DNA of 64,000 nt, from the NCBI GenBank assembly GCA_963721455.1, contig CAVRJG010000038.1, positions 64,001 to 128,000 of the forward strand, read 5' to 3'. Under the pieces are notes generated by a model that did no database searches, was not told the origin of the DNA, and was given only the letters and a program-made list of their open reading frames with translations. Shown here piece by piece: positions 17,260-28,273 of this stretch. Origin of the DNA: an uncultured Methanosarcinaceae archaeon. GTDB lineage: Archaea > Halobacteriota > Methanosarcinia > Methanosarcinales > Methanosarcinaceae. A program made the translations under genes and the position numbers. The stretch's first letter is position 1; the number at the start of each line of letters is the position of its first letter.

Positions 17260-20200
17260 TTATGATGAAATTGATTTTAATTTTGCTGGGATCAGGATTG
17301 AACAGCACTTTTTCTTCATTTCGTCGAAGGTAAGCTCTTTCAAATCCTGAATATGTTTGTGCATGAGCGGTGAGAATGCTTTATTAAGGATTCGTTTGAC
17401 TTTCCCGTCATTCAGTTTGAGTATTTCTTTTACATTTTCAAGAAGTACAGCTTGTTCCTGCAGTTTTCTACTCGTCTCAAGCAGTTGAATAAATCTTCGT
17501 AAACCTTACATTCTCTGAACCTTTTATCTATGGAATTTCTGAATTTCGTCTCTTCTAATATGTGAATGAGCTTTGTCTGTTATCGGGACTTGTCCCGCAT
17601 GGGTATCTCTTGCAGGATTGAACCCCGTATTTATTGAAGTCAGCAGGACAAACTGTTCCAGGACAAACTGTTCCATTACCTTGTCAACTGGTTTTATAAT
17701 CCCTTCATCCTGCCTTTTATTTAAGTATTTGTCAAGTGTTGAAACAATCCCTGTAGAACCTCCAAGAACTTTTTTGTCTTCTCCGAGAGTAAAGATTCCG
17801 TTTGCCATTATGAATGCTTTGTTGCCGGAGCATGGGTTGTTTATGTCAGCTTTTGCTATTTCATAGAACCTTTCTGGCTTCGGGTTTGTCTGAGGTACAA
17901 GAATTACGTCACAGGCAGGAATCAGGCGATTTCTTAAATCGGCATTCAGGTATTCGTAGCAGATCATTACTCCGAGGCGGAGGTCATCCCGCAGTTTGAA
18001 AATATGATTTACTTTTCCAGCTTTCATTCCTTCATTGAAATAGAGATCACGTTCTTCCCGTGCTCCAAGCAACTTTTCATTGTGCACGATTTTGAAGCAG
18101 GAATTACAACAGGGGAGATATTCTTCCTCAAGTCTTCTTCTTCAAATTCCCGAATGAACAAATTTTCCGTACGCTCCAAGATTCTTTTCTGTGACGTAAT
18201 GACTGCCTGCAACGACAATAATTCCGTTTTCATCAGCAAATTTCTGTATTTCTTCAAGATAATCAAAAGGTATGGAAAATTCGGGGAAAACAACAATATC
18301 TGCTTCTTTTTTCACAGCTCCAAGAATTGCCATGACTTTTCTGTGATAGGCATCGTCAGCTGTGATTTTTACAACTGAATTCTCCCGTAAGCATGATACT
18401 TCAACTGAACAGCGGCAATTTTCAAATCCCGATCAACGCAGACGCTATTTGAGCAGTCACACTGGAAGATTCGGGTTTTATTATCTCTGCTTATGCTTTC
18501 AAAATAATCAATTGACCTTATGAACCGGTTTTTTCTGTCCTGGCGTTGTGAAATTATTTCATCTTCTCCCTGCGGGAAATAGCCTGATCTTGAGGTAATC
18601 AATTTCAAGCAGGTTGTTTTTGATTTCTTCTCGGGTCAGAGTTCTGTTTAGAAGAATTTTATTTCCTGTTTTGATAGTCAGTTTTCCTTTTACTTTAGTT
18701 CAGGGATCGTCAAATATGACTTTCAGTTTCCAGTTTTCATAAATTATGTTTGAGATTGAAAGGTTCTTCAAAATAGTCTTTTATTTTCCTGTGAACATGC
18801 CCGAAGAGATTTTCAAGTGGCCTTGTATTCAATTTCACTGACTTTTCCATCAAGTTCCTTCAGAAGTTCTTTCCGCGTCTCTGTAGTCTTTTTCTTCAAA
18901 TATCTGCGGGATATTCTCAAATGAAACCCTTATGCTGGGGTTAACATCCTCAGGGAGGGTTTTGACAACTTCTCTGAATCAGTTCTTTCAGTTTTGGAAC
19001 ATCTACTTCTTCAAATTTCTCAACTTCTTCCAGGACTATTGAGTAGCCCAATATAGACGCAGTAGCAAACATTTGCCTTTTCATAAGTCTCTGTTGCGTT
19101 CTTGAACTGTTCCACTGCCTGCTTGAGCAGTTCCAGATCAGGTGCTCTTGAAGCAAGTGCTTCGTTTACAAGTTTTCTTCCTGAAAGGTAGCAAGTGGCA
19201 GAAGAATACAGAGTTTTGAAACAGCCTCATCATTCTCGATCTGACCCAGTTTTTCAACTGCCTTGAGAGCTTTTTCATATTCTTCTGCACCTTTTCTCGA
19301 CATCGGTTTCAAACTCTGATATTTTTCATCAGAAAGTCGATATATGCACTCAGACCTGCCCCGTAACCAGTTTTCTCTCGTGCTTCAGCCCATATTTGCT
19401 AAAAAATTCCTGATTTTTTTTGCAGAGTTGATCACATCCTCCAGGCATTAATCTGAGAATTTGTTTGCTTTTTCTGCCTGTTCCGTATTTAACTCAATAA
19501 GCCTGATTATTGAATTTGACTTCCTGCCTATAGTCAGGTACTGCATGGGTTCCGTAAAAATTTCAAGCGCTTTTTCGTACTTTTCTTTCGCCTCTTCGAT
19601 GCGCCCCATATTTCAAAGCAAGTTTCCTAAATTGTTGAGTGTCATTGCTACATCTGATTGGTATGCTACGTTTTCGGGGTCTGTTTATTGAGGAGTTTTT
19701 CATACATTTCGAGGGCTTTTTCGTACTTTTCTTTCGCCTCTTCGATGCGCCCCATATCAGAAAGCAAGTTTCCTAAATTGTTGAGTGTCATTCCTACATC
19801 TGATTGGTATGCTACGTTTTCGGGGTCGTTTTTGAGGAGTTTTTCATACATTTCGAGGGCTTTTTCGTACCTTTGTTTCGCCTCTTCGATGCGCCCCATA
19901 TTTGAAAGCAAGTTTCCTAAATTGTTGAGTGTCGTTCCTACATATGATTGGTATGCTACGTTTTCGGGGTCTGTTTTTGAGGAGTTTTTCCTCATTTCGA
20001 GGGCTTTTTCGTACCTTTGTTTCGCCTCTTCGATGCGCCCCATATCAGAAAGCAAGTCTCCTAAATTGTTGAGTGTCTTCCTACATCTGATTGGTATGCT
20101 ACGTTTTCGGGGTCGTTTTGAGGAGTTTTTGAGAGATTAAGAGATGTAATTCATAGCAATTTTTTGCTTGAAGAAAACGTCCCATTTTATAGAAAAGGTT

Positions 20201-20522
20201 TCCAAGAGTGACGATGCGGTCAAGATTCATCTGAAGACTTGACTGGTAAAGTTTGTTATCAGGGTCTTTTAAGAGGAGTTCTTCAGCAGCTTTTAAGGCA
20301 AAAGACATGGATCTTCAGGGCTTCTTCGTATGCTCCTACTGTCTGCATTAGACGTCCTTTTAAGGTCTGGACGTTGAGTAAAATGTCAATTGCTTTCGCC
20401 CTCTTTGCGGCTTCTTCGGCTTTTCCAAGCTCTTTTAAGGCTTCCTCAGGTTTGCCTTTTTGCATTAAAGATAAGGTCTTTTGAAAATGTCTTTCTGCTG
20501 AATCTCTCAAACGCCCTGACAT
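17260..20522 (-). pseudogene. Multiply frameshifted gene: N-terminal TPR array plus C-terminal carbon-nitrogen hydrolase (nitrilase) domain, about 1090 aa if intact
   Basis: Consecutive minus-strand fragments in changing frames: TPRs (20283-20522, 20099-20308, 19666-20055), then KIAAVQL, VVFPEFS, VVAGSH, HNEK and VMICYEYL nitrilase motifs (17524-18608). Confidence 0.8.
19561..20130. repeat. About 4 near-identical 144-bp (48-aa) TPR-coding tandem repeats
   Basis: cctcttcgatgcgccccata recurs at 19591, 19737, 19881 and 20025 (spacings 146/144/144). Confidence 0.9.
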
Positions 20523-20699
20523 AGTAAAAGAATTAATCTAGGGTGGCTTAAATGTTGTGTTTTTTTACGCTGCAATCGTAGCAAAAAGTGCGAAAATAAG
20601 AACTGATTTGCTTCTTTTTTTGCACACAGGGAAAAGCCGCGCAGACGGCGCGTGGACAAATTCGGGCTTAGACGGCTAGTCCGGTTGAGTGGGTTCAAT

Positions 20700-21464
20700 T
20701 TAGAGAGATTCGAGCTTTTCCCGCGTGAGGCTGAGTTCTTCCTTGAGCTTCTTGTTTTCAGGGTCTTTTTTGCTCAGGGTTTCAAGGATCTCAAATGCTT
20801 TTTTGAAGTTCTCTTTTGCCTCTTCTTTTTGCCCTTTTTCAGAAAACAGGGTTCCGAGATTGTTGAGTATCATTGCTGCGTCTGAGAGATATTCCGTGTT
20901 TTCAGGGTAACTTTTAAGGAGTTTTTCCTGGATTTTGAGGGCTTTTTCGTATTTTTCTTCTGCTTCTTCGGTTTGCCCCATTCCGGCGAGCAGTTCTCCG
21001 AGGTTGTTGAGGGTGTTTCCTGCATACATTAGATAAAATTCGCTTTCCGGCCTGGCGTCAAGCCGTTTCCGGCAGATTTCGAGGCCGATTTCATAGCACT
21101 TTTGCGAGGATTGGAAGTTGCCAGCTCTCTGAAATATATTCCCAAGGTTCCCGATGTTGTTCAGGTTCATGAGGAGGGTATCAAGGTAAAGTTTGTTTTC
21201 CGGGTCTGTTGAGAGGAGTTTTTCGCCGGTTCTTAAGGAAAAGGTGTAGGTCTCCAGGGCTTCTTCAAGCCTGCCCAGGGACTGCATCAGCTGGCCTCTT
21301 ACTTTTAAGGTGTGGAACAGAATGGCTCCATCCTTTGCCTCCTGTGCAATTTTTTCGGCTGTCTGGAGAGATTCAAAGGCTTCTTCGATCCTTCCTTTTT
21401 GCATCAGGTCCAGGGTTTCATTGAAATATTTTACTGCTTCTTCTCTCAACTTCTCAGCGGGCAT
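20700..21464 (-). CDS. TPR protein, paralog of the N-terminus of the TPR-nitrilase gene
   Basis: TLNNLG...GQTEEA..YEKAL repeats; DPENKLY. Confidence 0.88.
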   Translation of the reverse strand: MPAEKLREEAVKYFNETLDLMQKGRIEEAFESLQTAEKIAQEAKDGAILFHTLKVRGQLMQSLGRLEEALETYTFSLRTGEKLLSTDPENKLYLDTLLMNLNNIGNLGNIFQRAGNFQSSQKCYEIGLEICRKRLDARPESEFYLMYAGNTLNNLGELLAGMGQTEEAEEKYEKALKIQEKLLKSYPENTEYLSDAAMILNNLGTLFSEKGQKEEAKENFKKAFEILETLSKKDPENKKLKEELSLTREKLESL

Positions 21465-21701
21465 GATAAAAAGACGGGCTTGTGATGTCTTATAGGTTAT
21501 GTTTTATGCCTTGTTTTTTTCGTTCCTGTTACCATGTTTTTTCTTTCCTGTTATTATCTTTTTCTTCCAACTCCTTTATATATATTAATAACAGCTTAAT
21601 TATAGATGATCGAAGTTTCATATCTTTCTTTAACCCGCGTTTTTTAATATTTTGATGCTTATTGATATCTAAAAAAAGGTATTTAGGGAAAGGGAAATAA
21701 C

Positions 21702-22142
21702 GTGGATATGGAAGCAGAGAAAGAAAAAGATAGAAAGAGTCAGGGGAAGGGTAGAATCGACGTTCCTAAAAATCGCAAGCATGAAAAAACATACCTCATT
21801 CTTGTGAGTATCTTTCTCGCAACTATCCTTTTTTACACCCTTTATATCGGCCAGCTTCTCTGGGGCATAGTTATTGATATCCTTATTTTGAGGCTTTATT
21901 TCCTCATGAGAAGGGAAAGGAGTTACTTCAGGGAATGTGACTGGAATGAAGAAGAAGCCGGAACTCCTCATGACCCCGAAATGAAAAGGAAAATCAGGCT
22001 TGCGAACATTCTTATTACCCTTTTCGTGCTTGGGGTGGTTATTTATTCATACTTTACTTTCCAGTTTATATGGGGAGTCGTTGCGGGTTTGTTGATTTTG
22101 CTTTATGTGCACATGCTGCTGTTTTCAGAAGATAACCTCTAA
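21702..22142 (+). CDS. Small 4-TM membrane protein made of two LonB membrane-anchor-like repeats
   Basis: Two hydrophobic hairpins (..GQLLWGIVIDILIL; NILITLFVLGVVIYSYFTFQFIWGVVAGLLILL) matching the LonB TM segment encoded at ~24058-24156; SD-like agggaaaggg upstream. Confidence 0.8.
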   Translation: MDMEAEKEKDRKSQGKGRIDVPKNRKHEKTYLILVSIFLATILFYTLYIGQLLWGIVIDILILRLYFLMRRERSYFRECDWNEEEAGTPHDPEMKRKIRLANILITLFVLGVVIYSYFTFQFIWGVVAGLLILLYVHMLLFSEDNL

Positions 22143-22237
22143 AGGTGAGAATCTTCAAGCTGCAAGAGATTGCGAGCTTTAAGAGATTGCCTGTGCATCT
22201 GAGATGAAATCCTTATAGATAATTCCATAGTCGATTC

Positions 22238-23011
22238 TTAAAGCCTTTCCAGTTTTTCCAGCCTTTCCCGGGTTAAAGCAATGGCTTCTTTAACATTCTC
22301 ATTTTCAGGCTGCTGGGCGAGAAGGTCTTCCTGCATGACGAGTGCTCTTTCAAGGCTCTGTTTTGCAGCCTCATTATTTTCCGGGCCCTGCCGGATGAGG
22401 CAGTTTCCTAACTGGCTGAGCGCGACTGAAAGTTCGGCCTGATAGCCTGGGTTATCGGGTTTTTCTTCAAAGAGCTTCCCGTAAATCTCAATTGCTTGCC
22501 TGAGGATCTCGCATGCTCCTTCAAAAGAGCCTGTATCCGTAAGCAGGGCGGCGTAGTTGTTCAGGTTTTCGCCGGCATAGGATCGGAAGACTGCATTTTC
22601 AGGATCTTTAGCCAGGAGGTTTACATAGATCTCACGGGCGCGGATATAGTATTCGGCAGCTCTGTGATTTTCTCCTTTCTTTTTAAGAAGGTTTCCAGTA
22701 TTGCTCAGGGTTGTGCCCATGTAGTGCTGATAATCGGTATTTTCAGGGTCGGTTTTGAGAAGTTCGGCACCAGCATCGAGGGCTTTTTCATAGGTTTCGA
22801 GGGCCTCATCGTATTTCGATGCAGAATAAAGGATACCTCCGCGCGTGAAAAGAATGTAATAGAGGGCATCAGTGGACTTTGTTTTATTTGCTGATTTTTC
22901 AGCTTTATCTAGAGTTTCAAGAGCCTTATCCAGTTTGCCTTTCTTGATCTGGGTTACGGCACTGTGGATCTGCTTCAGAAGGAGAAGATTTTTGACCTTG
23001 CTTCTGGACAT
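22238..23011 (-). CDS. TPR protein
   Basis: YEKALD...DPENTDYQ...TLSNTGNLL; same repeat type as the neighbours. Confidence 0.88.
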   Translation of the reverse strand: MSRSKVKNLLLLKQIHSAVTQIKKGKLDKALETLDKAEKSANKTKSTDALYYILFTRGGILYSASKYDEALETYEKALDAGAELLKTDPENTDYQHYMGTTLSNTGNLLKKKGENHRAAEYYIRAREIYVNLLAKDPENAVFRSYAGENLNNYAALLTDTGSFEGACEILRQAIEIYGKLFEEKPDNPGYQAELSVALSQLGNCLIRQGPENNEAAKQSLERALVMQEDLLAQQPENENVKEAIALTRERLEKLERL

Positions 23012-23463
23012 AAGAGGAAAATGCTTCCTGTTTTTTAAATAACTGTCGATGCCGATTTATGATGCCGGGAGAATAATAACTCTGAATTTGCGGACAATGC
23101 TTAATGTATAAATAGAGGAGGTATCATAGGTTAATTGAAACTATCTTAAAGATTGATCTTAAAGATTGATCTGAGCATTGATTTTCGAATCGCTTTTTCG
23201 AGCCAGGTATGCAACTAGCAAATAGTATATAACAAAAGGTTTCTATATACTGTATACACAGTTGTAGGTTAATTTTATATACAGTAAGTTTATATAATTA
23301 GCCGAAGTATGGATGGGGTTACAGTAACCTCCGGAATTTGTTATTGTGACATCCGCTTTTTGCCAATCATTTTATCACTAAGTCTGTTATTTTTTCGAAA
23401 ACGTCAAGTATATATATTGATCAGTAACGTCTATTTAATAACGTTCGAATATGTGAGCTAACC

Positions 23464-25617
23464 ATGGTGTATAATAATAAGAACATAGACGAGTCTTCGG
23501 GGAAGGTGGACGAATCCGCTCCAACATTGGGTGAGTCCGTTCAGGACGTAGACAAGTCTGCGGCCGACCAGAGGAAGGATGAGTCGTCTGCGGCCGGGAA
23601 GGATGAGTCCGGTAGGGGTATAACCGGATCTGAATCCAATCAGGTTACTGAATCCAATCAGATTACTGAATCCAATCAGATTACGGCCGAGTCTCAGTCC
23701 GATCATGATATGGATGAAGATGTTGACATCGGCTTCCTGTTTGAAAACACTTCTAACATAGATGTACCCAAACTTCTTATAGACCAGGTGCTGGGGCAGG
23801 AGCATGCCGTAGAAGTCGTAAAAAAAGCGGCTAGCCAGAGACGGCACATTATGATGATAGGGACCCCGGGGACAGGGAAATCCCTGCTTGCAAAAGCGAT
23901 GGCTGAGCTTCTTCCTAAAGAAGAACTCAAGGATATCCTTGTATATCCTAATATGGAAGACCTCAACAACCCTAAAATCAGGGAGGTCCCTGCCGGAAAG
24001 GGCAGAGAAATCGTCATGGCTCACAAGATGGAAGCCAGGAAGAAAGCCCAGGCCAGGAATATGCTCATGATGCTTTTTGTATTGGGCATTATAATCTATT
24101 CTTATTTTGTTGCCCAATTGCTCTGGGGAATTATTGCAGGCATCATGATCCTCATGTTAACCCGCCAGTTCCTTCCTAAAGAGGAAATGATGATCCCGAA
24201 AATGGCGGTTTCCAATTATGACAAAGAGCACGCACCCTATATCGATGCAACCGGAGCCCATGCAGGAGCCCTGCTTGGTGATGTAAGGCACGACCCGTTC
24301 CAGTCAGGCGGGCTTGAAACCCCTGCTCACGACAGGGTAGAAGCCGGAGATATCCACAAGGCCCATAAAGGTGTGCTCTTTATTGATGAAATCAATACTC
24401 TCAGGCTGGAATCCCAGCAGAGTCTCCTGACTGCGCTCCAGGAAAAGGAATACCCTATTACAGGGCAGTCCGAGAGAAGTTCAGGCGCTCTTGTTAAAAC
24501 CGAGCCTGTACCCTGCGACTTCATTATGGTCTCTGCAGGGAACCTGGATGCAGTGCAGAAGATGCACCCTGCGCTCAGGTCAAGAATAAAAGGTTACGGC
24601 TACGAAGTCTACATGCGGGACTCCATGGAAGACTCTCCTGAAAACCGGAAGAAAATGGTCCGTTTCGTTGCCCAGGAAGTTGTTCGGGACGGGCACATAC
24701 CTCACTTTGACGAAGGCGCAGTAGAAGAAGTAATCCGGGAAGCCAGAAGGCGGGCAGGCAGGAAAGGTCATCTTACTCTAAAGCTCCGTGACCTTGGCGG
24801 GCTTGTCCGTGTGGCAGGAGACATTGCCCATTCCGAAGGCGCTCCAATTACAACTGCAGAACACGTGCTTGCGGCAAAGATGATTGCAAGGTCTATCGAA
24901 CAGCAGCTTGCAGACAGTTACCTGGATCAGCGTAAGGAATATGAATCCTTTATGAAAAGTGGTTCCGCTGTGGGCAGGGTTAACGGGCTTGCAGTCATGG
25001 GTGGAGATTCCGGAATTGTACTACCCATAGTGTCCGAAGTCACCCCTGCACTTTCCGGGACCGAAGGGCGCATTATCGCAACAGGTAAGCTTAAGACGAT
25101 TGCAAAGGAAGCAGTTCTAAACGTCTCTGCCGTGATTAAGAACATGACCGGTACGGACATATCCAGACATGACGTCCACATCCAGTTTGTAGGGACCTAC
25201 GAAGGTGTCGAAGGAGACAGTGCATCAGTTTCCATTGCAACTGCCGTCATATCTGCCATTGAGAGGATTCCTGTGGATCAGACCGTGGCAATGACAGGTT
25301 CCCTCTCTGTCAGGGGAGATGTCTTGCCTGTAGGTGGAGTAACCTACAAGATCGAGGCTGCAGCCAGGGCAGGTATAAGGAAAGTTATCATCCCGAAAGC
25401 AAACGAGGCAGATGTTCTTATTGAAAAGGCGTACCGGGATAAGATTCAGATTGTTCCGGTTTCTACGATTGCGGAAGTGCTGGAGCATAGTCTTGTGGGG
25501 CCCAGAAAGAACAATATTATCGAAAAACTGAAGAACATTACAAAAATCAGTTTCGATATTCCTGAAGTCTCACCCGCTTCCGTACAGGCTAAAAATCTTT
25601 TTGGGTGCAGGAACTGA
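23464..25617 (+). CDS. lonB: Membrane-anchored ATP-dependent protease LonB
   Basis: Walker A GTPGTGKS, TM insertion, GDVRHDP, Walker B LFIDEI, catalytic EGDSAS and ..VTYKIEA. Confidence 0.96.
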   Translation: MVYNNKNIDESSGKVDESAPTLGESVQDVDKSAADQRKDESSAAGKDESGRGITGSESNQVTESNQITESNQITAESQSDHDMDEDVDIGFLFENTSNIDVPKLLIDQVLGQEHAVEVVKKAASQRRHIMMIGTPGTGKSLLAKAMAELLPKEELKDILVYPNMEDLNNPKIREVPAGKGREIVMAHKMEARKKAQARNMLMMLFVLGIIIYSYFVAQLLWGIIAGIMILMLTRQFLPKEEMMIPKMAVSNYDKEHAPYIDATGAHAGALLGDVRHDPFQSGGLETPAHDRVEAGDIHKAHKGVLFIDEINTLRLESQQSLLTALQEKEYPITGQSERSSGALVKTEPVPCDFIMVSAGNLDAVQKMHPALRSRIKGYGYEVYMRDSMEDSPENRKKMVRFVAQEVVRDGHIPHFDEGAVEEVIREARRRAGRKGHLTLKLRDLGGLVRVAGDIAHSEGAPITTAEHVLAAKMIARSIEQQLADSYLDQRKEYESFMKSGSAVGRVNGLAVMGGDSGIVLPIVSEVTPALSGTEGRIIATGKLKTIAKEAVLNVSAVIKNMTGTDISRHDVHIQFVGTYEGVEGDSASVSIATAVISAIERIPVDQTVAMTGSLSVRGDVLPVGGVTYKIEAAARAGIRKVIIPKANEADVLIEKAYRDKIQIVPVSTIAEVLEHSLVGPRKNNIIEKLKNITKISFDIPEVSPASVQAKNLFGCRN

Positions 25618-25619
25618 TT

Positions 25620-26960
25620 ATGACAGGCATTATGCAGCACATTAAATTTTATGACTGCAGGGTGATAGAGGGCAGTTCCACCTCTATTATCCTGGATAAC
25701 GGAAAGATTGAAGAAATTTCCAGAAACTTCACGCGGGGGGCCGGCGTAAGGGCTCTCTGTGGGGGTTCCTGGGGCTATACGGCTGTAGAAGGAGATATCA
25801 ACCTTAAAAAGGGAGTCGAAGCTGCCTCAAAGCTTGCTTTTTCTATGAACGCTAACACCCCCAAAGAAGCCGTAGAGCTTGCAGCCGTGAATTCTCCGGA
25901 GATAACGAATCTCCCTGAAATCAGGATCGATCCAAGGGATATTGCTATCGAGGAAAAGGTTGACCTTTTGAAGAGCATAGAAACAAATGCAAAGGTAAAA
26001 GGAGTCAACAGCACCAAAGTAATATATATGGAATCCGAGTTCAAAATCGAATACAGGAGTTCCGATGGCCTGGAATGTGCTTATGAGCTTCTGAACGTCG
26101 GTTTTGCCGTTTCTGCAGTTGCTTCGGAGAACGGTGTATACCAGGCAGGCAGGGAAAGCCGCTTTGGGTATGGGTATGAACTTTTTGAGAAAGAAAATGC
26201 TCTGGAACTTGCAGCCAGGGCAGGAAACACTGCAGTCGAACTTCTTAAAGCGAAAACCCCTAAAGGCGGGGAAATGCCTGTGATTCTTGACCAGGAACTG
26301 GCTGGCGTTTTTGCCCACGAAGCTGTTGGGCACGCATCGGAAGCCGATCTTGTCCTTGAAGGGGACTCCATCCTTGAAAACAGGATAGGAGAACAGATCG
26401 CATCTCCCCTTATTACGATCATCGACGACCCTACCCTTCACGAGTTCGGGTACTATCCTTTTGATGCGGAAGGGGCACAATCAAGAAGGACCGAGATTAT
26501 AAGCGACGGAGTCTTTAATTCCTATCTCCATTCCCGGGAAACTGCAGCCAAACTCGGGGGAACCCCTGGGAACTGCAGGGCTCAGGGCTATTCCATGCCG
26601 GTTGTCAGGATGAGCAATACCTTCATAGACAACGGGGATGCCAGGTTTGAAGAAATGCTTGAGGAGGTCCGGGATGGAATGTATCTCACCGGGTCCAGAG
26701 GCGGACAGGTGAATACCGGGGAAGGGATTTTCCAGTTCAATGCCGAAAAAGGGTACCTGATAAGAAATGGGGAACTCACCGAACTTATAAGGGACGTTTC
26801 TCTCTCTGGAAAAACCCTTGAGATTCTCAACCAGGTAGCTCTGGTGGGCAATGACCTGAAAATGACTGCAGGCAGATGTGGAAAATCCGGGCAGCTTGTG
26901 CCCGTATCAGACGGTTCTCCTCATCTTGCCATCTCAAAAGCCCTTGTGGGAGGTGCCTGA
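25620..26960 (+). CDS. tldD: TldD family metalloprotease
   Basis: FAHEAVGHASEAD zinc motif, VVRMSNT, C-terminal CGK.GQ. Confidence 0.92.
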   Translation: MTGIMQHIKFYDCRVIEGSSTSIILDNGKIEEISRNFTRGAGVRALCGGSWGYTAVEGDINLKKGVEAASKLAFSMNANTPKEAVELAAVNSPEITNLPEIRIDPRDIAIEEKVDLLKSIETNAKVKGVNSTKVIYMESEFKIEYRSSDGLECAYELLNVGFAVSAVASENGVYQAGRESRFGYGYELFEKENALELAARAGNTAVELLKAKTPKGGEMPVILDQELAGVFAHEAVGHASEADLVLEGDSILENRIGEQIASPLITIIDDPTLHEFGYYPFDAEGAQSRRTEIISDGVFNSYLHSRETAAKLGGTPGNCRAQGYSMPVVRMSNTFIDNGDARFEEMLEEVRDGMYLTGSRGGQVNTGEGIFQFNAEKGYLIRNGELTELIRDVSLSGKTLEILNQVALVGNDLKMTAGRCGKSGQLVPVSDGSPHLAISKALVGGA

Positions 26961-26962
26961 AG

Positions 26963-28273
26963 ATGTACGATCTTGCAAGAAAAGCTCTCAAGCTGGCAGA
27001 AAAAGCAGGGGCTGAAGAGGCTGAAATTTATTATGCTGCAAATCACTCAACAGGTGTGAATTTTAAAAAGGATGCCCTTGAGAACGCTAAAGATCGCTTC
27101 TCGGAAGGCATAGGAATCCGGGCCATAGTAAATGGAGCAGTTGGTTTTGCCAGTACAAATTCCGCAGCAGAACTTGAAAATGCTGTTGAAGTTGCAGTTG
27201 CCGAAGCGAGGGTCCGGGAAAACGACCCTGACTGGGTGAGTCTACCTTCTAATGGGAAATACCCCAGGGTCTCGGGAATCTTTGATAAAAAAGTAGAAGC
27301 TATGGAACTCGAAGAGTGTATCGAGTATGCCCTGGCGCTCGTTGAAGGCACAAAAGAGTTTCCAGGCACGCTTCCGACCTCAGGAGGCTTTACCCGGGCA
27401 AAAAGCAGGCAGCTTATCCTGAATACAAACGGGATAGAAATAGAAGAAGAATCCACAGCTGTTTCGGGTTTTGTGGATGTTATTACGGTAAACGGGCATA
27501 CTTCAACAGCGTATGATTTTGCTGTTTCCCGTTCTCTTGATATTGACTTCTTTGCTCTGGGCAAAAACGCATCCGATCTTGCCCTGAAGTCCAATGGCGG
27601 AATAAAGATCGAACCGCAGAAAACTGATGTAATTTTCCATCCTTTTGCTTTTTCGGATATTATTGAAGAAGCCCTTGCCCCTTCCATTGACGCGGACAAT
27701 GTCCAGAAGGGAAGGTCAGGCCTGATTGAAAAGCTCGGGGAAGAACTGGCAGTTCCGGAACTGAGCATCTACGATGACGGGCTGATTGAGGCAGGAATCG
27801 AGACTTCAGTGTCTGACGACGAAGGTGTCCCTTCGCAGCGCACCACTGTGATCGAGAAAGGTTTGCTTAAGACTTACCTGTATGACAGCTATACCGCAGG
27901 AAAAGCAGGCGTAAAGAGCACAGGTAATGGCTCAAGGTCTTCTTATACCAGCCCTCCTTCGGTAGGGCTCAGGAACTTTATTATTGATTATCCGAAGACG
28001 GATGTTATTGCTGACACGCGGTCCGGAGTTTTCGTAAATACGATTATCGGTGCCCACACAGCAAACTCAATTTCAGGAGATTTTTCCGTAGAAGCCAGAA
28101 ATGCTTTCACAATCAAAGACGGAGCTCTTGATAAGCCTGTAAAGTCTCTTATGATTTCGGGCAACGCCTTCGAACTCTTAAAACAAATCACAGGTGCAGG
28201 CTTTGATGTCAGGAAAGTCGGAGGTATAATTACACCTTCGATCCGGGTTTCGGATATGAGCGTAATAGGTTAA
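26963..28273 (+). CDS. pmbA: PmbA/TldE family protein (start at ATG 26963, not 26876)
   Basis: AEEAEIY, GIGIRAI, DDEGVP, STGNG, SGDFS; lacks HExxxH; follows tldD with SD ggaggtg. Confidence 0.9.
   Translation: MYDLARKALKLAEKAGAEEAEIYYAANHSTGVNFKKDALENAKDRFSEGIGIRAIVNGAVGFASTNSAAELENAVEVAVAEARVRENDPDWVSLPSNGKYPRVSGIFDKKVEAMELEECIEYALALVEGTKEFPGTLPTSGGFTRAKSRQLILNTNGIEIEEESTAVSGFVDVITVNGHTSTAYDFAVSRSLDIDFFALGKNASDLALKSNGGIKIEPQKTDVIFHPFAFSDIIEEALAPSIDADNVQKGRSGLIEKLGEELAVPELSIYDDGLIEAGIETSVSDDEGVPSQRTTVIEKGLLKTYLYDSYTAGKAGVKSTGNGSRSSYTSPPSVGLRNFIIDYPKTDVIADTRSGVFVNTIIGAHTANSISGDFSVEARNAFTIKDGALDKPVKSLMISGNAFELLKQITGAGFDVRKVGGIITPSIRVSDMSVIG

Follow-up and report, generated by a model that had tools for sequence, protein, structure and literature searches.

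The subject of this analysis is a small gene in a 64,000-nucleotide stretch of DNA, hereafter the window, from an uncultured archaeon of the Methanosarcinaceae (GenBank assembly GCA_963721455.1, contig CAVRJG010000038.1, positions 64,001 to 128,000). The gene lies upstream of lonB, which encodes LonB, the membrane AAA+ protease that takes the place of FtsH in archaea. A preliminary description of the window had regarded the small protein as a stand-alone copy of the transmembrane (TM) anchor of LonB, and the reading frame confirms the architecture it gave, i.e., 146 amino acids forming two hydrophobic hairpins joined by a charged linker. It had also placed the gene just upstream of lonB; the gene is indeed upstream, but it does not directly adjoin lonB, since 1.3 kb and a tetratricopeptide-repeat (TPR) gene on the opposite strand lie between the two. 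The features of the locus are collected in Table 1.

Table 1. Features of the locus, in window positions
Feature	Positions	Strand	Remarks
TPR-repeat gene divergent from the small gene	20700..21464	-	paralogue of the 22238-23011 gene
Conserved AT-rich upstream block	21629..21678	+	TTTAACC.GCGTTTTTTAATATTTTGA...TTATTGATATCTAAA; 25-75 nt 5' of the start; from an alignment of 18 upstream regions
Small gene	21702..22142	+	146 codons, GTG 21702 to stop 22140-22142; four predicted TM helices, i.e., two hairpins
Variable N-terminal tail	21702..21791	+	residues 1-30; basic near the membrane (GKGR..PKNRKHEK)
Hairpin 1	21792..21908	+	residues 31-69; YLILVSIFLATILFYTLY-IGQ-LLWGIVIDILILRLYFLM
Charged linker	21909..22004	+	residues 70-101; RRERSYFRE...EEEAGTPHDP...KRKIRLA
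Hairpin 2	22005..22124	+	residues 102-141; NILITLFVLGVVIYSYF-TFQ-FIWGVVAGLLILLYVHMLLF
TPR-repeat gene between the small gene and lonB	22238..23011	-	convergent with the small gene; Pfam TPR families; position conserved
lonB	23464..25617	+	archaeal membrane-bound ATP-dependent protease, 717 aa; TIGR00764 947 bits (cut-off 516.6); Lon_C, LonB_AAA-LID
LonB TM insertion and juxtamembrane stretch	24022..24186	+	LonB residues 187-241; very probable parent of both hairpins

Similarity of the small protein to the LonB hairpin

By BLASTP with composition-based statistics, residues 90-144 of the small protein aligned without gaps to LonB residues 187-241 (24 of 55 identical, E 7e-16), and residues 15-72 aligned to LonB residues 178-241 (24 of 64 identical, E 1e-8); therefore, both halves of the small protein match one and the same piece of LonB. 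The 19 identities in 33 ungapped positions that had been counted earlier between repeat 2 and the LonB insertion were obtained again on recount, and the other two resemblances noticed at that time, namely that of the basic stretches HDPEMKRKIRLAN and HKMEARKKAQARN and the occurrence of the LonB QLLWGI in repeat 1, are both present. In Smith-Waterman alignment with the LonB TM region, repeat 2 scored 143, compared with 25.0 +/- 4.8 for shuffled sequences, and 0 of 2000 shuffles reached 143; when only the hydrophobic core was shuffled, the score was 124, compared with 31.6 +/- 5.7, and 0 of 5000 reached it. Repeat 1 scored 92, which 0 of 2000 shuffles reached. The preliminary description had left room for a likeness no better than that of shuffled membrane sequence, and the scores far exceed this level. 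Profile-profile alignment by hhalign, with 13 orthologues on one side and 25 LonB segments on the other, returned a probability of 97.8% and an E of 8.4e-13, and a six-frame search of the whole 3.94-Mb genome matched the small open reading frame (ORF) itself and LonB only. BLASTP, hhalign and the shuffles thus agree that the protein is a paralogue of the LonB TM insertion that consists of the anchor alone and stands by itself.

The absence of an ATPase or protease domain, which had been noted from the beginning, was borne out in Pfam and NCBIfam: the AAA family was absent from the small protein in both collections and Lon_C, the S16 proteolytic domain, was not found in it by Pfam, while the nearby LonB matched all. 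Both halves are hairpins of the LonB TM type, standing alone instead of being inserted. The match to DUF7103 (PF23396) was 19.3 bits, below the gathering threshold of 27 bits, and the best match in the ESM Atlas (0.87) was a 112-residue archaeal hypothetical cluster that is probably the small protein's own.

The parent segment is itself highly constrained. The LonB hairpin is nearly invariant across the Methanosarcinaceae, and its Q-L-L-W-G-I-I-A is invariant in 25 sequences from the genera of the family, which argues for a role beyond anchoring. YSYF and AG are common to hairpin 2 and Methanosarcina LonB, the corresponding residues in other genera being YSFY or YSFF and AA or AV. Among solved LonB chains, 4zpx_A, presumably the Thermococcus LonB, is the only one with the TM stretch, and this in its sequence only; it belongs to a distant archaeon and lacks the YSYF/QLLWG signature. 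The solved chain 3k1j_A is without the TM stretch.

The small protein begins with a variable, partly basic N-terminal tail, followed by a 39-residue hydrophobic stretch with a central IGQ, a charged linker of 32 residues, another hydrophobic stretch centred on TFQ, and a short tail that ends five residues past helix 4. The GKGR of the N-terminal tail is that of LonB (residues 178-181), where it precedes the hairpin within the AAA+ module; the tail as a whole is probably dispensable. Hairpin 1 keeps the LonB QLLWGI turn, and its second helix carries a nearly invariant Asp59 and an invariant Arg64. The HDP..KRK.RLAN of the linker corresponds to the LonB juxtamembrane stretch AHKMEARKKAQARN. Hairpin 2 is the closer LonB copy, in which G111, YSYF, Q, WG and the GxxxG (G125..G129) are kept, and it also has a conserved LLYxHMLLFS tail that is particular to the small-protein family. 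In the core of hairpin 2, at least 90% family conservation was found at 13 of the 19 LonB-identical positions versus 3 of the 14 others (Fisher p 0.013), and in its second helix the LonB identities fall at i, i+1, i+4, i+5, i+8 and i+9 (W G.. A G.. I L), i.e., on a single helix face with the GxxxG. The conserved parts that are absent from LonB are D59, R64, E72, E78, G87, EEEAGTPHDP and LLYxHMLLFS (L134-Y135-x-H137-M138). On the N- as well as the C-terminal side, each hairpin is flanked by basic residues (PKNRKHEK, RRER, KRKIR), and the turns IGQ and TFQ are uncharged. Because of these flanks and turns, we infer a topology of four TM helices with both termini inside, in which the charged parts, including the linker, would be cytoplasmic; this would be the same orientation that the LonB insertion must have.

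It may be argued that such similarity does not reflect common descent, the ORF being a divergent member of DUF1673 (arCOG06827) and its likeness to LonB a convergence of hydrophobic hairpins. DUF1673 is described in PMC4158269 and PMC4390880 as a Methanosarcina expansion of membrane proteins with an N-terminal MGWCP motif. Our ORF matched its Pfam profile, PF07895, at 22.3 bits (21.3 in the genome search), a few orthologues carry a precomputed PF07895 label, and one of the orthologues (P0087) reached 28.1 bits. However, the match of the ORF is below the curated cut-off of 30.4 bits, and MGWCP, present in canonical members, is absent from the small protein and from all rows of its 13-sequence alignment. 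The PF07895 search of three Methanosarcina genomes missed the small-gene orthologue, and the 23 canonical frames from these genomes matched neither the LonB TM region nor P0128, a metagenomic protein described below, at a significant level (best E 0.002 in a tiny database), the best match of the small ORF to the same frames being equally weak (E 0.002). Moreover, the LonB match spans polar and aromatic residues and a flanking soluble stretch, and survives both composition correction and shuffling. This alternative is thus very improbable, and membership in DUF1673 was rejected on the sub-threshold score, the missing MGWCP, the lack of a tandem array and the lack of a significant match to canonical members. 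The canonical genes themselves (MGWCP, ~205 aa) occur in head-to-tail arrays (L124-L135, in the genomes G101, G104 and G107); DUF1673 matches numbered 13, 15 and 6 in the three genomes, the majority at one locus, and none was over the cut-off in the window's own genome.

Constraint, distribution and origin of the gene

The ratio of nonsynonymous to synonymous substitution (dN/dS) was estimated pairwise by the Nei-Gojobori method over 113 pairs, in which dS is saturated. For the core of the small gene, the median was 0.136 and the maximum 0.30; by segment, it was 0.13 in hairpin 1, 0.19 in the linker, and 0.12 in hairpin 2 with the tail, and it rose to 0.49 in the 15 columns before helix 1 (TM1). 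The 13-sequence alignment, which reaches down to 56% identity, has 27 invariant columns. The frame is without stops in 18 of 18 full-length loci of a 101-genome sample of the Methanosarcinaceae, and stops were found in only three of 47 matches within the genus of the window; in two of these (G131, G119) the match extends beyond the open frame, as would be expected if the stops were in the N-terminal tail; the remaining one is G114.

The start of the gene is less regular, and the start codon and the first 34 codons are uncertain. Besides the GTG at 21702, there is an ATG at 21708 and a possible internal start, GTG, at 21804; of the 18 loci, 12 have GTG and 3 have TTG at the latter position. In three of the 18, no ATG, GTG or TTG precedes TM1 in frame, and stops occur at the site homologous to the upstream start. 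A 140-codon open frame is common to ten of the 47 genus matches, among them that of G104, the longest canonical ORF of which is 112 aa from the internal GTG, and 112-aa forms beginning at this GTG are present in databases. Since the start and the N-terminal tail are variable or uncertain, the core protein is to be taken as the two hairpins and the linker. The AT-rich block 5' of the gene may be an archaeal promoter, with a candidate TATA box and transcription start, as judged from the alignment.

These results bear on the view that the ORF is a non-functional relic of a partial duplication, or is untranslated. The ambiguous start codon, the decay of the N-terminal tail in some species, the loss of the gene in some lineages, and the absence of metatranscriptome contigs over the ORF among those at hand would agree with it; the dN/dS of ~0.13 at saturated dS, the open frame in nearly all loci and the 27 invariant columns contradict it, and we consider it hardly credible. 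Absence or decay of the ORF in relatives, which the preliminary description had named as a threat to its reading, does not apply to most of them, as the gene is constrained and is present in 47 of the 59 genomes of the genus. It is, therefore, well supported that this is a real, lineage-specific gene for an integral membrane protein.

Full-length, open-frame counterparts were found in 18 of the 101 Methanosarcinaceae genomes, in three genera, with identities from 91% down to 57%. The window's genus contributes 10 of its 11 other genomes, a second genus (g13) 6 of 6, and a third (g2) one of two, the other g2 genome having a contig end before the expected site. In the whole genus, the gene was present in 35 of the 39 genomes of 90% completeness or more. 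Of 5.8 billion proteins searched by word index, 190 matched at E <= 0.001; among the 120 of these that were listed, identities were 65-96%, all named organisms were Methanosarcina, and most named records were "hypothetical protein", a few having scattered automatic labels. A profile search of 1.84 billion representatives gave only 12 matches at E <= 0.001, namely orthologues, their fragments, LonB fragments and the proteins P0128 and P0132, and the family is therefore narrow. Named public records with the gene (34 loci) all belong to Methanosarcina or to unclassified Methanosarcinaceae or Methanosarcinales. Identical proteins are recorded as hypothetical in M. acetivorans and M. mazei; M. siciliae has members of the same cluster, more than 90% identical to the M. 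acetivorans form, and M. lacustris also has one. Database entries for orthologues include AAM06661.1/Q8TKV3, MSLAZ_2122 and MSSIT_1282, besides WP entries of M. mazei.

All orthologue loci among those listed have their genes arranged as TPR(-), small gene(+), TPR(-), lonB(+), tldD/pmbA(+), so that the synteny around lonB that had been proposed for checking is kept in three genera. The orthologue of the TPR gene at 22238-23011 was present in all of these loci, and also in L049 and L142; it was missing in L140 and L141. The small gene lies within a cluster of paralogous TPR genes (19448-23011, including both in Table 1), and a 144-nt unit, repeated 4.0 times with 94% matches (19560-20130), makes up a minus-strand TPR-repeat gene. 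On the other side, lonB is followed on the same strand by two genes of PmbA/TldD-family metallopeptidases (25605-26960 and 26876-28273), the order of which is conserved in relatives; because 13 nt are shared between the end of lonB and the first of these frames, a protease operon of all three genes is possible. Within its 5' part, lonB contains an 18-nt unit repeated 3.1 times with 97% matches (23630-23684), which encodes the low-complexity SNQVTESNQITESNQIT, and the N-terminal extension of LonB is variable, as the open frame ranges from 684 to 799 aa among relatives.

Origin was inferred from similarity, shared characters and a tree. In the tree of 60 hairpin units, three clean groups were recovered, i.e., repeat 1 (100/97), repeat 2 (98/93) and LonB, with stem lengths of 1.17 and 1.08 changes per column and short branches within the groups; the tree has few columns and a rough bootstrap, and the sisterhood of the two repeats is not resolvable from it. 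Each repeat is closer to LonB (143 and 92) than to the other repeat (74), which fits a slow-evolving parent with two fast-diverging copies. Most likely, judging from these comparisons, a part of lonB was duplicated beside lonB and then internally, both before the radiation of Methanosarcina, in a common ancestor that this genus shares with two sister genera; the two copies would have diverged fast, after which strong purifying selection set in and a new function was fixed. We hold it very probable that the protein consists of two tandem, diverged copies of the LonB juxtamembrane stretch and TM hairpin, with a conserved charged linker, and that it originated in this manner.

LonB-like hairpins were also seen in other proteins of the family, the weaker matches among them (E 1e-4 to 1e-7 per genome) being leads, not proofs. 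P0128 (163 aa, metagenomic) is a stand-alone protein with two tandem copies of the LonB 'AH.K...QARN + TM hairpin' segment; it is a single-member cluster on two contigs, and was not found in the 101 family genomes or in the genome contig collection searched. It arose independently, because its two repeats pair with each other in the tree and fall with LonB (100/99). A 261-aa ORF of genome G062, genus g4 (L070:1305-2087, minus strand), ends in 77 residues that reproduce LonB from KIREVPAG up to and including the hairpin (49% identity, E 1e-20), following an unrelated N-terminal membrane part; it lies far from the lonB of that genome and occurs in one of 11 genomes of the genus. Single-hairpin proteins of 51-88 aa occur in g3. 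In g10 and one g3 genome, proteins of ~100-145 aa (L071, L073, L074, L076, L077, L080, L081) have a LonB-like hairpin (..FY/FH-IGQLLWGII..) followed by PLDc_N (PF13396). These are often adjacent paralogues, and two (L073, L074) begin with MGWCP; g10 proteins thus combine MGWCP, a LonB-like hairpin and PLDc_N, and one, that of L073, passes the DUF1673 cut-off with 34.3 bits. A weak match was also found in a record named Methanococcoides. Proteins of ~165-215 aa (L082:1037-1630, minus strand, in genome G028 of g13; L079; L083) have the hairpin at the N-terminus and a conserved, unnamed C-terminal soluble domain (..RYES.F....G....V.Y.G.C..), and occur in g13, g4 and g10; the L082 hairpin matched the LonB TM region at E 3.7e-10 (within the locus), and the protein had no Pfam match. 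Among the carriers checked, none adjoins lonB. A search for fused forms among 340 candidates of 257-2000 aa gave none at E <= 0.001, a weak negative because LonB itself misses that database-wide threshold.

Possible functions

On the strength of its sequence, the small protein is a candidate membrane partner or modulator of LonB, a role that we favour tentatively and rate at somewhat less than an even chance. The preliminary description had proposed that it might co-assemble with LonB as a dominant-negative subunit, a substrate adaptor or a decoy. It would sit in the membrane beside the LonB hexamer and pack against the LonB TM hairpins through the helix face kept by hairpin 2 (G111, the YSYF aromatic belt, Q, and WG..AG..IL with GxxxG), and, as an accessory subunit or modulator, would tune how LonB is organised in the membrane or how membrane substrates gain access to it. 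An added function would come from the conserved features that are new to the small protein, namely Asp59 with Arg64 (helix 2), the acidic linker (EEEAGTPHDP) and the tail LLYxHMLLFS. Such a role is favoured because the protein descends from the LonB hairpin, the face is kept at saturated dS, the LonB hairpin is nearly invariant, copies recur, and the neighbourhood with lonB has lasted. When the small protein was modelled in complex with the LonB TM segment (residues 20-105 of the LonB alignment), no answer was obtained (score 0.00, without controls), which is evidence neither way.

Nearly as likely, and itself a serious possibility, is a function independent of LonB, in which the hairpin was reused as a stable membrane scaffold by a neofunctionalised small membrane protein. 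This protein would act alone, as a homo-oligomer (a four-TM bundle whose Asp/Arg pair lies within the membrane and whose conserved linker is cytoplasmic) or together with a different partner, and its adjacency to lonB would be a neutral remnant. Several observations indeed weigh against a role at LonB. In 81 genomes of 13 other Methanosarcinaceae genera, there was no full-length orthologue but just LonB or weak partial matches; LonB, therefore, needs no small protein, as these genera, which never gained the gene, have almost the same LonB hairpin. Within the genus of the window, 12 of the 59 genomes gave no match to the gene, four of them at least 90% complete (G037, G145, G116, G132), and it is thus dispensable in some lineages. 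In G037, the TPR gene is followed by ~400 nt without a small ORF and then by the contig end, the slot being empty, and in G145 the flanking TPR gene is present and the small ORF is absent from its slot; in G132 and G116, the TPR gene as well as the small gene is missing. Since the opposite-strand TPR gene lies between, the small gene is not co-transcribed with lonB, and the lack of an operon link agrees with an independent role; the adjacency itself may be a leftover of local duplication. In two metatranscriptome runs that held small shares of the window, contigs lay over 22675-22984 and 23318-23480, touching parts of the TPR gene and the 5' end of lonB, and none lay over the small ORF.

The structure of the protein adds to these points. 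Its invariant features foreign to LonB (D59, R64, E72, E78, G87, HDP, L134-Y135-x-H137-M138) speak for independence, and among them Asp59 replaces the second Gly of the LonB GxxxG, with the invariant Arg64 five residues further. The long stems of both hairpins, succeeded by strong conservation, and the greater closeness of each repeat to LonB than to its twin, are to be counted here as well, since long stems of both hairpins would also be expected of divergence away from the parent. An AlphaFold2 (AF2) monomer built with 13 sequences was a poor model (pLDDT 66, pTM 0.37, two long helices by DSSP). The LonB TM region is too invariant for a covariation test, and LonB hairpin identity of <=93%, found in 3 of 11 genomes without the small gene versus 3 of 47 with it, is a weak contrast that is confounded by kinship. 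The LonB-like hairpins found elsewhere on PLDc_N or on the unnamed soluble domain also fit a generic membrane module. Nonetheless, hairpin 2 keeps the whole small-residue and aromatic face of LonB despite the saturated synonymous sites; YSYF, Q, WG and GxxxG are needless for a generic anchor, though they may be needed for a tight hairpin fold alone; and the order beside lonB is kept in three genera among the loci listed.

Two of the genomes without the small gene have rare changes in the LonB hairpin: G145 (L142) has 'VYELIWG' for 'VAQLLWG', and G037 (L049/L020) has 'AGLLILML' for 'AGIMILML'. Both are toward states of hairpin 2 of the small protein, and could reflect chance, relaxed constraint or gene conversion.

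Two other relations to LonB can be envisaged. In one, the small protein is a substrate or competitive decoy, brought to the membrane-proximal entry of LonB and there degraded or titrating the protease. The basic juxtamembrane stretch that precedes the LonB hairpin is kept in both repeats (HDP..KRK.RLAN and GKGR..RKHEK), and small proteins that steer FtsH-dependent degradation, of which PMC12648545 gives instances, offer a precedent; however, a linker and tail conserved at dN/dS 0.12-0.19 are unexpected in a mere decoy, and the idea, which was already in the preliminary description, overlaps with that of a partner or modulator. We regard it as improbable. In the other, the TM hairpin of LonB serves as a portable module for docking to LonB and was copied repeatedly in the Methanosarcinaceae (in tandem, single-hairpin and fused forms), and the Methanosarcina protein intercalates into, or caps, the ring of LonB hairpins and so regulates the protease; with two hairpins each, three molecules of the small protein would match the six hairpins of a LonB hexamer. 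This more specific proposal is unlikely, albeit less so than the decoy; if true, it would make the small protein the first protease regulator of the microProtein type and the first LonB partner known in archaea.

Returning to the partner or modulator role, a conserved anchor-only paralogue beside lonB provides a concrete hypothesis that is cheaply testable in Methanosarcina, for which genetic tools exist. The small protein is a solid evolutionary finding with a readily testable functional hypothesis attached to it: if binding is absent, it still documents the datable birth of a membrane protein family from a 55-residue fragment of an essential gene.

Comparison with known systems

The closest known relative is the TM insertion of archaeal LonB itself (TIGR00764). 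The two halves of the small protein are each homologous to this hairpin and the juxtamembrane stretch before it, and its ends, like those of the insertion, are probably cytoplasmic; in contrast to LonB, the small protein has no AAA+ or S16 domain, has two tandem hairpins in place of one, carries conserved features of its own, and is encoded by a separate gene 1.3 kb upstream. LonB is stated to be essential in Haloferax in a review of archaeal membrane proteases (PMC9263693), a term search of which turned up no membrane partner or adaptor of LonB. The literature on archaeal LonB, its structures, DUF1673, and the orthologue accessions and locus tags, with supplementary tables of Methanosarcina transcriptomes and proteomes outside this scope, likewise gave no description of the small protein, in line with the remark in the preliminary description that no such system was known.

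DUF1673 proteins resemble the small protein in being lineage-restricted, uncharacterised, small multi-TM proteins of the same organisms, and in the weak sub-threshold profile match; they differ in that canonical members have no LonB-like hairpin, whereas the small ORF has no MGWCP and stands outside tandem arrays. P0128 shares the plan of a stand-alone protein with two tandem copies of the LonB juxtamembrane and hairpin segment, but its repeats are each other's closest relatives and there is no conserved acidic linker.

Among systems of known function, the small bacterial membrane proteins MgtS and MgtR tune FtsH-dependent degradation, as outlined in PMC12648545. They are small membrane proteins that modulate the substrates of a membrane AAA+ protease, which for the small protein is a proposal; unlike it, they are bacterial single-helix peptides of ~30 aa that bind substrate transporters and are not derived from the protease. 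In concept, and by analogy, the small protein would be microProtein-like, namely an anchor-only paralogue of an AAA+ protease. MicroProteins, as characterised for plants and animals in PMC9638782 and PMC4807768, are small, consist of a single domain of a larger multidomain protein, and modulate that protein by binding it. The small protein is similarly small, is only a domain copied from a larger multidomain protein, and has a separate gene; known microProteins, however, mostly target soluble transcription factors or photoreceptors via dimerisation domains, whereas here the copied part is the membrane hairpin of a protease, the organism is an archaeon, and binding is hypothetical. If such binding is true, the microProtein principle would extend to membrane helices, to proteases and to archaea, and the LonB hairpin, by its near-invariance, would be marked as an interaction surface instead of a passive anchor.

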